DNA of 64,000 nucleotides from Candidatus Zipacnadia bacterium (lineage in GTDB: Bacteria; Armatimonadota; Zipacnadia; Zipacnadales; Zipacnadaceae): assembly GCA_029820565.1 (NCBI GenBank), contig JALGUR010000022.1, forward strand, positions 17,731 to 81,730, given 5' to 3'. Below are positions 2,403-7,956 of this stretch, one piece after another. The notes beneath the pieces were generated by a model. That model saw only the letters and a list, made by a program, of their open reading frames with translations, was not told the DNA's origin and made no database searches. Each line of letters begins with the position of its first letter. The first letter of the stretch is position 1. Made by a program: the position numbers and the translations under genes.

Positions 2403-2990
2403 ATGCCTACTTCTACCAGCAACCCGGGTCAGAAACTTGCCAGCGCTGGCAACAGTTCAAGTGTATTAGCCAAAGCCGGTCTTGACGTTGACCTCAAGCG
2501 CATAGCGGTGATGCTGGTGGTCGGTTTGGCTGTGGGACTAATTGCCGATATCTTCACTGGTCAGAATTACCAACAGCGAGTGGCCGGCAGCCAAGCAGCC
2601 CCCCGGCAGGGCCCAAAACCGCCACCGGGCATTGACGCGCGAACGGCTCACGAGTTGAGCAGTACAGGGGAAGCAGTGTTAGTAGATGTCAGGAGTGCTG
2701 GCTCATACCGCAAAGAGCATGCCGCTGCAGCTATTAACCTCCCGGAGTACGTTTTGGCAGCCAAAGAGAAGGATGCCGGCGTCCTGGCCAAGGTACCTAA
2801 GGATACCCACCTGATCGTATATTGCTCTTCGATGCAATGCTCGCAAGCAGCCCGTGGGGCTATGTTATTGAACACGCTGGGATATGCAAAAGTGTCAACG
2901 ATGACCGGGGGTATAGAAGGTTGGAAGAACGCCGGATTGCCTACGGAAAAAGGTCAGGAGAACGACACTACTCGCGAGGAGAAGAAGTGA
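2403..2990 (+). CDS. membrane-anchored rhodanese-like protein
   Basis: One TM segment; LVDVRS, YCSSMQC active loop and MTGGIEGW motifs. Confidence 0.85.
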   Translation: MPTSTSNPGQKLASAGNSSSVLAKAGLDVDLKRIAVMLVVGLAVGLIADIFTGQNYQQRVAGSQAAPRQGPKPPPGIDARTAHELSSTGEAVLVDVRSAGSYRKEHAAAAINLPEYVLAAKEKDAGVLAKVPKDTHLIVYCSSMQCSQAARGAMLLNTLGYAKVSTMTGGIEGWKNAGLPTEKGQENDTTREEKK

Positions 2991-2996
2991 ACTGCT

Positions 2997-3476
2997 GTGG
3001 CACTACTTCGGAGGAGTATAGACAGTGTGTTGGCGAGCCGATGGGTCCTACTAACCTTGCGGCTGGCTATTGGGGCAGTGTTCATCATAGCCAGTTGGGA
3101 CAAAGTGCTGAACCCGGGCCGGTTTGCCGAGATTATCGAAGGTTACAAGATCGTCTCAGGATATCCAGTCCAGGCATTAGCCGTGTGGCTGCCGTGGGTA
3201 GAACTCGGGGTTGGCCTGATGTTGGTTGCCGGGATTTGGATACGAGCCGCGGCGCTACTCTTTTCGGGTCTAACGATAGTGTTTATTGCTGCCATCGCCT
3301 CAGCCTTGGTTCGGGGATTAGACATACAGTGTGGCTGTTTCTCGCTTTCTCTTGGTAGCGACGCTCGGACATGGGTCTCGCTGTGGCAGGAGATTGCCCT
3401 GCTAATGGGTTGCCTATGGCTATGGGTAGCCTCTTGGCCTGCCACCGGAACTCAACCTTCACAGACCGATAAGTGA
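2997..3476 (+). CDS. MauE/DoxX family redox-associated membrane protein
   Basis: LRLAIGAVFIIASWDK, LPWVEL and RGLDIQCGCF motifs; GTG start. Confidence 0.85.
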   Translation: MALLRRSIDSVLASRWVLLTLRLAIGAVFIIASWDKVLNPGRFAEIIEGYKIVSGYPVQALAVWLPWVELGVGLMLVAGIWIRAAALLFSGLTIVFIAAIASALVRGLDIQCGCFSLSLGSDARTWVSLWQEIALLMGCLWLWVASWPATGTQPSQTDK

Positions 3477-3539: not shown

Positions 3540-5633
3540 TTAGGTTTCTACCTGCAGGTAGTCGCGCAGTATCTGAGTACGACGGGGATCGCGGAGTTTC
3601 TTGAGCGCTTTGGATTCAATCTGGCGAATGCGCTCGCGGGTGACATCAAAGATGTGGCCTACTTCCTCCAAAGTGCGAGGATAGCCATCCTCCAGGCCAA
3701 ACCGTAGTTTGAGCACTTCGCGCTCGCGTCCCGTGAGGTCGTCCAGCACCCGATTGAGTTGTTCACGCAGTACCAGATTAGAGGCCAGATTAACGGGGGT
3801 TTCTTCTTCTTCATCAGGCACAAAATCGCCGAGGTAATTATCTTCTTCTTCACCGATGGGAGCCTCCAGAGAGAGAGGCTCAGGGGCAATACGTTTGACT
3901 TCGGCGACCCTCTCGACAGGCATATCCATCTCCACAGCGACCTCATCAAGGGTGGGTTCGCGGCCGTATTGCTGGAGAAGTTGTCGTGAGGTCTTGACCA
4001 ACTTGTTGATGGTCTCGACCATATGGACAGGGATACGAATGATGCGGCCTTGGTCAGCCAAGGCCCGGGAGATAGCCTGGCGAATCCACCAGGTAGCATA
4101 AGTGCTGAACTTGTAACCCTTACGATAATCAAATTTCTCTACGGCCCGCATCAGTCCCACATTGCCCTCTTGGATCAGGTCCAAGAAACTCATTGCGGAG
4201 CGCCCGGTATACTTTCGGGCGATGCTAACCACCAGACGGAGGTTAGCTTCAGCCAACGCGGCAACTGCATCTTCGTCTCTGAGTTTCATACACGAGGGGT
4301 CTATGCTGCCGGGATCCACAATGCGAGTGAAAGACGCTTCGATGAGACCATACAAGCCAGCTCCCTCGGTCTCATCAGGCGGGAAAATGGAACCTACCTG
4401 CATGGCAGTGCGGGTCGCGGTCGTAGTGAAGTCAACGGTAACCGGTTCGGGCAAGGGGTAGCCGGTAGTTCCTTTAATACCATCCTCGCCTGCCTTCAAA
4501 GTTAGCGTATAGGCCATCTCAGTGGTCAAAGGATCGCGGGGCAAGAAGCGAATTTGACGGCGCTCAGCGTCATAATAAACCTTTCCGGAGACGGGATTAT
4601 TCATTGCGTCCCGGACTTTGACGGTCTTAGAGGTGACCGTACTGGGGTCTAATTGGCGATCCACAGTAACTGTGATGGGAGCAGCAATGCTAACGTTGGT
4701 AGCCTCCGCAGCAGGTTGAGTATTCACCACCCGAGGGGCCGCCTTCCGATAAGTAGTTTCAAACTGAAACGTGTAATCAGCCGCCAGAGGACGGCCGTCC
4801 TCGGTATTGATGCCTTCCTCATCTCCTCGGACGGTTACAGCAAGTTTGTTGCGATGGCGCAGGGGCTGTTTGGGAGTAAACACCAGCCGCCAGGGGTCAG
4901 GCCCCACTTTGACTCTCCCCAGAACCTGGCGACCTTTGCCATCAATAACTTCTATCTTCTGGGACGTGACCGACGCGGGATCCAGAGCATCATTGAAATA
5001 GATGATGATGGGACTATCCACGTCCACCTGCTGTTGACCGTCAGCCGGATAGGTTCTGGTTATCTGCAACGGACCATCAGCCGCACGAGTTCGGAACGAC
5101 CACATATAGTCAGAAGCCAGCGAGTGGCCAGTAATGTCGTATAAACCATCATCACCGTCACGCAAGATTACGACGTAGAGAGTATCCGGTTCCAGGCGCT
5201 CGTGGGGGTGAAAGCGCAGAGCGTTATGGGCCTTGTCATAGCTCAATTCTCCCTCGCCTTTTTGGACACGTCGAGCTAGTTCTACCTCCTGCTCAGCGGT
5301 CAGCAGAGGCACCTGCCCAATAGCATGTAGATACATACGGACTGAATCATCAACCGGTACACCTTCATCCTCGTCGGCTGTATCTTCTTCTTCCTCCTGG
5401 CGATGTTCCCGGGTGGCCTTTTCATCCTTCGCCACATAAATACCGGCACCGTGTAAGACTCGATATATCTCCTCAATATCCTTGGCGTCCAGAAGTTCAT
5501 TATCAGCCAAGGCTTCCTGAATATCACTATACGTTAGATAGCCCTGCTCGCGTCCCTTGGTTAGCAGGCTTTCCACTTCGTCAATGTCCCGAACGTCAGC
5601 CGGTTTTTTGTCAGTCTGTTCGTCCTCGGGCAA
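3540..5633 (-). CDS. rpoD: primary RNA polymerase sigma factor RpoD with inserted Ig-like domains
   Basis: Region 1.1 ([12 protein letters not shown]), 1.2 ([26 protein letters not shown]), 2 ([31 protein letters not shown]), 3 ([13 protein letters not shown]) and 4 ([23 protein letters not shown]) all intact; directly downstream of dnaG; TTG start after GGGAG. Confidence 0.95.
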
Positions 5634-5639
5634 CTACAC

Positions 5640-7655
5640 TCAACTCCCTGAGTTATGCTCTTCGTCCTCAGCCTGGTCTGAGGACTGCTCGTCGTGAGAC
5701 GGTTTCCTTTGTGTTGCTGCCACGGTTCCATCGGTCTCGACAAAGTCGAATTGACCTTTCCCGTGAAACAGCATTACCAAGCGCAGAAACTTTTGATAAT
5801 CGGGATGCTCGTGAGTCAATTCTCCGGTTTCCGCCAGATTAGCTACTCGCTGCTGGAGTCGGTAAAAATCTTCAATATCGGCTTGACCGTTCTGGTCAGC
5901 GGATAACTCCGTGCCGCGAATCTCGTATTCCTCCTGCAAACCGGCCCCAGACCGATGTTTGCGCAGTTTGGCGGCCGCATCTTGTAGCATCTCCTCGTCC
6001 AGCTCATCAACAGGCGGCACTAATAGTAGTTCTATGCCGCGGTCCCGGGTTCCTTCCTCTTCGGGGAGTTTATCCACTAATCGGCCCGGGTCGTACTGGT
6101 CACCTGCTGCTAACTGGTCGGATATAGCCTGGGCGATCTGGCGATGTTGAGGGATAGCAAAGTCATTGGGATTTATCTGGGCAAAGACTTGTTGGGCCAG
6201 ATCGGGACTTTCCAGCGCGGCAGCCAGCAGTTCCTTCTCCAACTTCTCCCACCACGCCGGTTGCTCCGCGTAGCGAGCCACCGCATCGGTTATGAAACTG
6301 CGGTCGCGCGGCGAGTTGGCAGTAATCTTGGGAGCGCTCGTTCTGCGCCGACTAGCCCGGCGCCGCAATTCCATCTGGAGGGCCCGCTGCATACTTTCGG
6401 TGCGGCCCGGTTGGTCCTGGGCCCACAGATCACCGGCGCGCGCGATAAACTCGTTGCGGCGCGTGAGGTCAGCAACATCGGCCAGCACATCTACCGCGGC
6501 GCGCGCGGCTCGCACCATACCATCAGCGCCTTGATTACGATACTGACCGAACACCATATCCAGGCGATACTCCACTAAACCAACCGCCTCGTTGATCAAC
6601 TGTCTAAACTGCTCAGCACCATGGCTGCGGACGTAATCATCAGGGTCCTGACCTTCGGGCAGGACCAGTATCTTTGCCGCCAGACCGCTGCGCTCAAACA
6701 AATCAATATTGCGCAGGGCCGCTTGCATTCCACCGGCGTCCGCGTCATAACACAATATGACTTCGTCAACATAGCGACCCAGCAGGCTCAAGTGGTCTGA
6801 GGTCATGGCAGTGCCCAGAGTCGCTATCACATTGCTCAGGCCGGCCTGGTGGAGAGCAATGACATCGGTGTAACCTTCCACGACAATCCCATACTTGTCG
6901 GCCACTAACTGCTGACGGGCCAGGTCCAACGCATACAGATTACGGCCTTTGCTAAACAAGGGAGTGTCGGGAGAGTTAAGGTATTTGGCTGGCTCCTCAG
7001 GATCCATAGCCCGGCCGCCAAAGGCAATTATCGTCCCGGCCGCATCAGTGATGGGAAAGATGATGCGGTGGCGAAACACATCGTAGTGGCTGCCGCGATC
7101 GCTCTGCTTAATCAGTCCGGCTTCCTGGGCAATATCAGTACTGATACCCTTGCCAGCCAGTAACTTGAGCAAGTCATCCCACGCATTGGCAGCGTAACCC
7201 AACTCAAACTTATCAATGACCTCATCAGTAAGGCCCCGCTCGTGGACATAGGCAAGCGCGGCGGCTCCCCGGGACTGACCGAGATTGCGCCGGAAATGCT
7301 CAGCCGCCAATTGGAGGGCGCGGTGCAAGAGTTTACGGCGCTGCACCTGGGCCTCGTCTGCCGGCCTCGCCCGCCATGGCAGGCCGACTCGTTGGGCCAG
7401 CCGCTCCCCCGCCTCCGCGAAACTTATTCCCTCTATCTGCATCAAGAACGCGAATACGTCGCCACCAGCACCACATCCAAAACAATGCCAGAATCCACCC
7501 GCAGGGTCTACATAGAACGAGGGATTCTGTTCGGCGTGGAAGGGGCAGCAAGCCTTGAACCGGCGACCCGCCCGTTGCAGAGGGACATATTGAGAGATCA
7601 ACTCAACAATATCAACCCGGCGCTTGATTTCTTCCTTAACGTCGTCCCTATCCAT
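5640..7655 (-). CDS. dnaG: DNA primase
   Basis: CPFHAEQNPSF...HCFGCG zinc-binding domain; KYLNSPDT, VVEGYTDV and CYDADAGG TOPRIM motifs; KDPD-like QDPDD. Start at ATG 7655. Confidence 0.97.
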   Translation of the reverse strand: MDRDDVKEEIKRRVDIVELISQYVPLQRAGRRFKACCPFHAEQNPSFYVDPAGGFWHCFGCGAGGDVFAFLMQIEGISFAEAGERLAQRVGLPWRARPADEAQVQRRKLLHRALQLAAEHFRRNLGQSRGAAALAYVHERGLTDEVIDKFELGYAANAWDDLLKLLAGKGISTDIAQEAGLIKQSDRGSHYDVFRHRIIFPITDAAGTIIAFGGRAMDPEEPAKYLNSPDTPLFSKGRNLYALDLARQQLVADKYGIVVEGYTDVIALHQAGLSNVIATLGTAMTSDHLSLLGRYVDEVILCYDADAGGMQAALRNIDLFERSGLAAKILVLPEGQDPDDYVRSHGAEQFRQLINEAVGLVEYRLDMVFGQYRNQGADGMVRAARAAVDVLADVADLTRRNEFIARAGDLWAQDQPGRTESMQRALQMELRRRASRRRTSAPKITANSPRDRSFITDAVARYAEQPAWWEKLEKELLAAALESPDLAQQVFAQINPNDFAIPQHRQIAQAISDQLAAGDQYDPGRLVDKLPEEEGTRDRGIELLLVPPVDELDEEMLQDAAAKLRKHRSGAGLQEEYEIRGTELSADQNGQADIEDFYRLQQRVANLAETGELTHEHPDYQKFLRLVMLFHGKGQFDFVETDGTVAATQRKPSHDEQSSDQAEDEEHNSGS

Positions 7656-7956
7656 AACCACGATGTGTCACTCACAATTAGTTCGACGAATTACTATATG
7701 TAGAAGTTCTCCTGGGCCAGCAATAATCCTCCTTTGGCATTTGGGCCGGTCTTCCGGGCGGCTGAACTTGCTGAAGTCTACGCTCGACACGGCCCCTGCA
7801 ATGGTCAAGATGGTAAGTCGTGCGGAGGGGCCGGTCGCCGCAGGCCCAGCGAAGCGCAGGCCTGCCAGGCCGGCCCTATTCTTCCAATCTTCACCAAAAG
7901 ACAGCGGCCCCGCCGCAGCGAGGCCGCTGTTACCAATAACCGAGGAGTGGGACAGG

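Follow-up and report, generated by a model that had tools for sequence, protein, structure and literature searches.

A Big_5-type Ig-like insert with a putatively circularly permuted domain in the housekeeping sigma factor of Candidatus Zipacnadia

The sigma factor RpoD of Candidatus Zipacnadia bacterium (Armatimonadota) carries a 326-residue insert of Big_5-type, Ig-like domains in its non-conserved region (NCR), between regions 1.2 and 2. The architecture is fixed class-wide, and no insert-bearing sigma was found outside the class in the genomes sampled. Judged from its repeat pattern, the insert reads as one half-domain, two whole domains and the complementary half, the third domain being circularly permuted. 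Our full account combines a gain of the insert, a permuted ring, capture from a repeat array and service as a working NCR, and as a whole we would give it an even chance.

Results

RpoD identity and gene context

The window analysed here is a stretch of 64,000 nucleotides (contig JALGUR010000022.1, positions 17,731 to 81,730 of the forward strand). Ca. Zipacnadia have been described as anaerobic sediment bacteria (PMC10290634), and the available part of the main text of that paper makes no mention of sigma, RpoD or Ig-like domains. The features concerned are, in window coordinates:

3540..5633, minus strand: rpoD, group-1 sigma factor, 697 aa, TTG start (ORF call, Pfam, NCBIfam)
5364..5582, minus strand: sigma region 1.1 (aa 18-90), PF03979, E 1.8e-14
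5256..5348, minus strand: sigma region 1.2 (aa 96-126), up to the N-terminal junction, PF00140, E 1.8e-16
5079..5255, minus strand: Big_5 C-half (aa 127-185), one of the two parts of the putatively permuted domain, PF13205 positions 56-105
4743..5078, minus strand: complete Big_5 domain B (aa 186-297), PF13205 positions 3-105, CopC Z 13.7
4410..4742, minus strand: complete Big_5 domain C (aa 298-408), PF13205 positions 3-105, CopC-like Z 13.4
4278..4409, minus strand: Big_5 N-half (aa 409-452), the other part of the putatively permuted domain, repeat-profile positions 3-54; alignable with the first halves of B and C
3543..4277, minus strand: sigma regions 2.1-4.2 (aa 453-697), intact, Pfam r2, r3 and r4
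5640..7661, minus strand: dnaG primase, directly upstream of rpoD (context only)

All conserved regions were matched by Pfam in the 697-residue protein (Sigma70_r1_1, r1_2, r2 at aa 460-530, r3 and r4), together with three Big_5 stretches, and dnaG ends 7 bases upstream of rpoD, giving the dnaG-rpoD order. An earlier note on this DNA had described an intact rpoD that follows dnaG and keeps every conserved region, and had expected this very set of profiles; both descriptions hold. RpoD models are the top-ranked NCBIfam matches of the protein, and the C-terminal RpoD model TIGR02393 scores 361.6 against a cut-off of 354. An Atlas search returned a SigA cluster only. When the sigma core was compared by tblastn with the whole source genome (G000, 89.5% complete), rpoD was found along with two distant sigmas of ~30% identity, and it is the sole group-1 match there; the search for another group-1 sigma proposed in the note thus yielded none in this genome. 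Given the sole group-1 match, the dnaG-rpoD order and the TIGR02393 score, the insert-bearing rpoD appears to be the working housekeeping sigma, as had been supposed, and it is group-1 by every feature that could be tested. A promoter scan gave no signal above shuffles. Just past rpoD, on the opposite strand (window 2403-3476), are found genes labelled by eye as rhodanese-like and DoxX/MauE-like membrane genes, each belonging to a cluster common to nine related loci.

Boundaries and domain order of the insert

From 4278 to 5255 (minus strand) the reading frame is free of stops over 326 codons and in frame within the 697-residue ORF. In this stretch, residues 127-452, PF13205 matches in three parts (E 9.9e-42, 142.4 bits against a cut-off of 23.6 in Pfam), in agreement with the Big_5 insertion first proposed at these coordinates. 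The spacing between the anchor motifs is 16 residues in insert-free sigmas compared to 340-352 in insert-bearing ones, hence the junctions originally placed at residues 127 and 452 are correct.

Two to three Big_5 repeats had been counted at first. The three Pfam stretches agree with this number, but these are not ordinary repeats. Taken singly, two whole units and the C-terminal half exceed the PF13205 cut-off, the N-terminal half being absent from the list of matches. We then used a repeat profile of 113 positions, built from 400 of the 860 repeats of long non-sigma proteins that had themselves been found with the rpoD insert as query. With this profile the order C-half, whole, whole, N-half was read in 103 of 117 insert-bearing sigmas, and the remaining 14, the source RpoD included, display partial or over-extended matches in the same order, while none of four insert-free control sigmas was matched. 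In the relatives, the C-half covers profile positions ~54-110 and the N-half 3 to ~52, complementary and without overlap, and the two half-domains align end to end with whole Big_5 domains once their order is swapped. The cut falls in a hairpin turn between two beta strands, and the whole domains have a turn at the same place. The reversed order of complementary halves that characterises a circular permutation is thus present in the same 103 of 117 rows, and the pattern indicates an insert made of a half, two whole domains and the complementary half, in which the split unit would be a circularly permuted third domain. A covariation analysis of the two halves, at an effective depth of 66, gave noisy top pairs.

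Predicted structure

The AlphaFold model of the full RpoD has a pLDDT of 82, while that of the insert alone reaches a pLDDT of 94.1 and a pTM of 0.86, with every 10-residue block at 87 or above, both halves included. Domain B of the predicted model superposes on CopC (Z 13.7, rmsd 1.5 over 94 residues) and domain C on a CopC-like fold (Z 13.4, rmsd 1.8 over 95 residues), and the whole Big_5 domains also match SbsC (Z 12.3), LdtMt2 and alpha-2-macroglobulin Ig domains. The comparison of the model with CopC and SbsC thus shows an Ig-like beta-sandwich, the fold that had been expected from the letters. Conserved His/Met copper sites define CopC, and the insert has a similar fold but lacks this conserved cluster; its Pfam CopC score of 15.9 bits lies below the cut-off.

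Residues 92-530 of the full model superpose on solved sigma-2 domains with an rmsd of 3.2-3.6 over 94-115 residues (7xya_F, 110 residues, rmsd 3.3; 5h6x_A, 94 of 94, rmsd 3.2; 3ugo_A, 111 residues, rmsd 3.2). The model thus keeps sigma domain 2 intact despite the insert, with region 1.2 packed on region 2, and would bring both insert ends together. The models lend indirect support to a folding of the two halves as one circularly permuted domain and to a closure of the three domains into a ring, which we consider very probable.

Distribution, phylogeny and assembly integrity

Among the best 120 of 312 matches, a protein search gave at least 106 other proteins that combine sigma regions and Big_5; these cover the query region completely at 32-76% identity, and one further protein is partial. 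Additional deep-branching members came from further searches, the independent insert-bearing proteins exceeding 100 in all, and the named records among them are Armatimonadota. In a survey of the class, 74 of 79 genomes had an RpoD match (the five without one are 66-89% complete), and in 73 of the 74 the match reaches into the insert, for several genomes only as contig-end fragments. These 73 genomes span 14 families with no loss among them, and the insert measures 324-339 aa in all 105 aligned rows and 324-341 aa in 41 genome loci. The one class member with a short NCR loop is G227 (L049:4016-5137), whose gene also follows dnaG. Outside the class, the higher RpoD matches listed for a phylum sample of 201 genomes start no earlier than residue 430 and thus leave out almost the whole insert. 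The insert profile was run over 401 genomes and matched ten outside the class; the eight ORFs read from seven of them (the other three being G163, G215 and G424) have no sigma motif and consist of whole repeats in tandem, and by eye most of them begin with a signal-like N-terminus.

A tree was built from regions 1.2 and 2-4 only, with the insert left out, from 43 of 62 rows extracted (18 were thinned from well-sampled families and one paralogue was dropped). All 27 rows with the insert fall together on one side of a branch supported at 99/97, with 16 others opposite. G227 lies outside the insert clade on a long branch, and a one-residue indel in region 2 is common to both. From this tree, the simplest reading would be a single gain once the G227 line had split off; a loss of the insert in G227 is less likely. 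The search for the same architecture that the note had proposed has thus turned up at least 106 relatives, 73 of 74 class genomes and a single clade.

All carriers examined are metagenome-assembled or environmental records, as would be expected if the gene were an assembly chimera or a non-functional second copy. Against this stand the more than 100 independent proteins and the 73 of 74 class genomes with the same architecture, and both junctions, for which a check had been called for, are bridged by independent contigs of other studies: 4278 by X1 record 4 and X6 record 29, and 5255 by X1 record 8 and X5 record 23 (drawn from 4 of 24 listed public runs). A second copy is opposed by the sole group-1 sigma found in G000 and by the strong purifying selection on its core. 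The presence elsewhere, the class-wide distribution and the bridging contigs already refute a chimera, and chimera and spare copy together retain a probability close to nil. In base composition the insert matches the downstream part of rpoD, with GC and GC3 contents of 0.54 and 0.57 compared to 0.54 and 0.59.

Several other observations were made on the sigma genes of these genomes. In G016 (67% complete), three insert-bearing rpoD pieces occur on C262, C11 and C35, possibly through strain mixing. Other Armatimonadota families (f25, f27 and f30) have a second, unrelated NCR of ~250 aa (L057:2415-4403, L059:2695-4536, L061, L064-L066), of helical-looking composition, without a Pfam match in the two scanned, and forming its own clade (100/99). 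Finally, in L068 (G230:C35) a frame of 659 aa seems, as judged by eye, to unite an ECF-type sigma, a domain resembling DUF151 nucleases and group-1 regions 1.2-3.

Selection and conservation

In the four closest of the listed pairs (L013/L018, L009/L013, L009/L018 and L032/L034), dN/dS is 0.15-0.19 for the insert, 0.09-0.14 for region 1.1 and 0.006-0.04 for the core. The 343 distant pairs that passed the filter, with an insert median of 0.74, have saturated synonymous sites and were left out. These values indicate that the insert is under purifying selection. Mean pairwise identity among 105 relatives is 33-46% for the insert pieces compared to 82-91% for regions 2-4, and that of the insert drops to 27-34% between deep branches. 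By unit, the sigma-proximal permuted domain is the best conserved (0.39 compared to 0.31 and 0.34).

Among 86 conserved insert positions, 26 have residues that seldom occur at the corresponding profile position of non-sigma repeats, and the other 60 are generic Big_5 fold residues; most of the underlying alignment comes from one order, and deep families lack several of the sigma-specific residues. Some of the 26 may be contacts between the ring domains. The conserved basic residues near aa 261 and 297-301 stem from this one-order-dominated alignment and are not kept in deep-branching families. Across 41 inserts the net charge varies between -33 and +16, a spread that is hard to reconcile with a single conserved face for DNA binding. 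Together, the dN/dS, identity and charge data suggest that the insert is kept folded, and a class-wide binding face is only a candidate.

Discussion

Comparison with known systems

Like the NCRs of large-NCR group-1 sigma70 factors (E. coli, PF04546-type; Thermus SigA), the insert occupies the 1.2/2.1 position, with the same flanking regions and the same dnaG-rpoD order. The E. coli sigma70 NCR is helical, whereas the Zipacnadia NCR is predicted to be all-beta, with three Ig folds, one of them permuted, from an exported-protein repeat family; Sigma70_ner (PF04546) had no Pfam match in the RpoD insert at E up to 0.1. NCR length is 247 aa in E. coli, 72 in Thermus and ~30 in mycobacteria (10.1101/256826; PMC4598750). 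NCR size and structure are said there to vary by lineage, and the available text names no Ig form (PMC4598750).

With Big_5/SbsA-type exported arrays (PF13205) the insert shares the fold, its units having 22-27% mean identity to non-sigma repeats, but it is cytoplasmic, lies inside a presumably essential transcription factor and is fixed at three units. In contrast to the exported location of Big_5 surface proteins, its domains are enclosed in a sigma whose N-terminus is the acidic region 1.1. In the eight non-sigma arrays examined, every unit is whole and follows directly on the last, whereas the insert has one split, putatively permuted unit. Thermus beta-prime i2 and actinobacterial beta-prime i1 are likewise domains gained once, fixed in a lineage and located at a spacer between conserved segments; however, they lie in core subunits and are sandwich-barrel hybrid or helical, while the present insert lies in sigma and has a surface-protein-type Ig fold. 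Thermus i2 has repeated domains, a complex topology and a role in SigA binding (PMC5511352).

Origin of the insert

The closest relatives of the insert are tandem Big_5 arrays in long non-sigma proteins, and donor-type arrays of whole repeats are present in the same phylum and widespread overall (8,298 matches). The note had seen here an extracellular-type module domesticated on the polymerase. The tandem arrays of non-sigma proteins among the relatives and the class-wide retention go some way to bear this out. Sequence comparison makes it likely that the NCR was replaced once, early in one Armatimonadota class, by three units of a tandem-repeat exported protein. Internal triplication is a further candidate origin: the insert units are 24-26% alike, compared to the 22-27% between each of them and non-sigma repeats, which does not separate triplication from capture, and the joint grouping of the three units has a support of 0.21. 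One donor-type array, encoded by the lipoprotein-like frame L131:1790-4456, combines six whole Big_5 repeats with an ice-binding-like domain.

We think it probable that three units were excised in phase from such an array, for instance as a circle arising by repeat recombination, and put into rpoD. A cut of this kind would give exactly C-half, whole, whole, N-half, and its ends would reseal as the permuted domain. Ig domains have their N and C ends at opposite poles, so that an in-phase cut would suit a short loop: the segment would enter it without pulling helices 1.2 and 2.1 apart, the opened hairpin turn of the ring holding these two sigma helices. A closed ring would thereby let 326 residues fit a short loop and keep the unit number constant.

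Proposed function and alternatives

The ring would give sigma domain 2 a rigid arm lying next to the promoter spacer and the beta-prime clamp, and could tune open-complex formation or promoter escape, either through contact with DNA or core or by docking of a lineage-specific regulator. That it now serves as an NCR touching DNA, core enzyme or regulators is the likeliest of the functions considered, with an even chance of being right. There are precedents at this site: in E. coli the NCR makes contact with DNA at -16/-17 and helps opening, and RbpA acts as an NCR extension (10.1101/256826), while NCRs are contacted by RbpA, GcrA and GrgA and influence promoter escape (PMC7403470). Moreover, RbpA, Crl, GcrA and GrgA are there described as binding or occupying the same face of sigma domain 2 (PMC7403470), and by analogy the insert may work like a built-in version of such sigma-2-binding activators; these, in contrast, are separate, regulated proteins, and Pfam and fold searches of RpoD returned no likeness to any of the four. 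The more specific proposal of a built-in activator or docking ring for regulators in the holoenzyme of the whole class remains tentative, falling somewhat short of an even chance. Against such a function, the insert is dispensed with in G227, the sister lineage, and elsewhere in the phylum.

Two other candidates were rejected. Compensation for a loss of CarD was tested through its C-terminal domain PF21095, matched in 1 of 79 genomes of the class; the phylum sample gave 6 matches among 201 genomes, all six of them weak (21-25 bits). This scarcity is phylum-wide, and G227, without the insert, is also without a PF21095 match, so the insert is not explained by CarD loss. Co-variation with a beta-prime insertion was set aside since the acidic insertion occurs in insert-bearing and insert-free genomes alike (13 of the 15 loci listed). 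In the source genome, this long acidic insertion lies near the beta-prime N-terminus (rpoC, L105:1747-2523, G000:C26), and its middle is longer and more acidic in class members, G227 included.

The insert could instead be an entrenched passenger that landed by accident in a tolerant loop and has no job of its own. Partial deletions would open the ring and unfold it beside the essential sigma domain 2, a clean full deletion would be rare, and selection would act only on fold and solubility. This explanation would suit a dN/dS 4- to 30-fold above that of the core in the four closest pairs, a wandering surface charge (-33 to +16), the 60 of 86 conserved positions that are generic fold residues, a unit number that the ring alone accounts for and a sister lineage, G227, without the insert. 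It is harder to reconcile with the absence of loss in 73 genomes of 14 families, although one deletion would suffice and the insert nearly doubles the protein length, and with the 26 positions specific to the sigma copies. We consider a mere passenger rather unlikely, though it remains the strongest of the competing explanations.

Two further roles would give the ring a job other than that of an NCR. A shield against phage proteins and a tether had been suggested in the note, alongside binding to a regulator or DNA, and all of these remain conjectural. As a steric shield, it would keep phage or host anti-sigmas, appropriators or proteases off sigma domain 2. Crl cannot bind sigma70 owing to a clash with the NCR (PMC7403470), and a variable insert surface would fit a role in conflict. 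However, close pairs show no nonsynonymous excess. AsiA and other prominent phage inhibitors target sigma region 4, far from this site, and a shield is in our opinion improbable. Slightly more improbable still is a sensor or tether, in which CopC-like domains would bind a metal or small ligand or would attach the holoenzyme to a membrane or polymer. Among solved structures, CopC copper chaperones (Z 13-14.6) are indeed nearest in fold, together with S-layer and peptidoglycan-enzyme Ig domains, and M344 and M373 are conserved in ~80% of rows. Nevertheless, identity to CopC is only 13-22%, a shared fold is no proof of function, and there is no conserved His/Cys/Met cluster, only four such positions reaching at least 40% (C138 0.56, H260 0.50, M344 0.79, M373 0.82).

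Significance

Literature searches for an Ig-like insert in a sigma found no description, most subscription journals and supplements being outside their coverage, and the class-wide Ig-insert variant of the housekeeping sigma is apparently undescribed. The note had known of no precedent; it had missed the fixation in 73 of 74 class genomes and the probable circular permutation. Standard annotation gives a plain RpoD, which may be why the architecture went unremarked.

Across the class, an unrelated all-beta surface-protein module fills the NCR slot, and a surface module has turned into a fixed part of the core transcription machine. The short-loop sister lineage, the families with an NCR of ~250 aa and the Ig ring offer a natural three-way swap on the role of the NCR, in which the short NCR of G227 is the natural control. 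The permuted ring suggests a general route by which repeats with distant ends could enter a tight loop of an essential protein, and this bears on domain evolution and protein engineering. If the account is true, the basal bacterial transcription machine of this class would contain an Ig-fold module, and its sigma factor would show that, in nature, circular permutation can close a ring and thereby make the insertion of domains possible.
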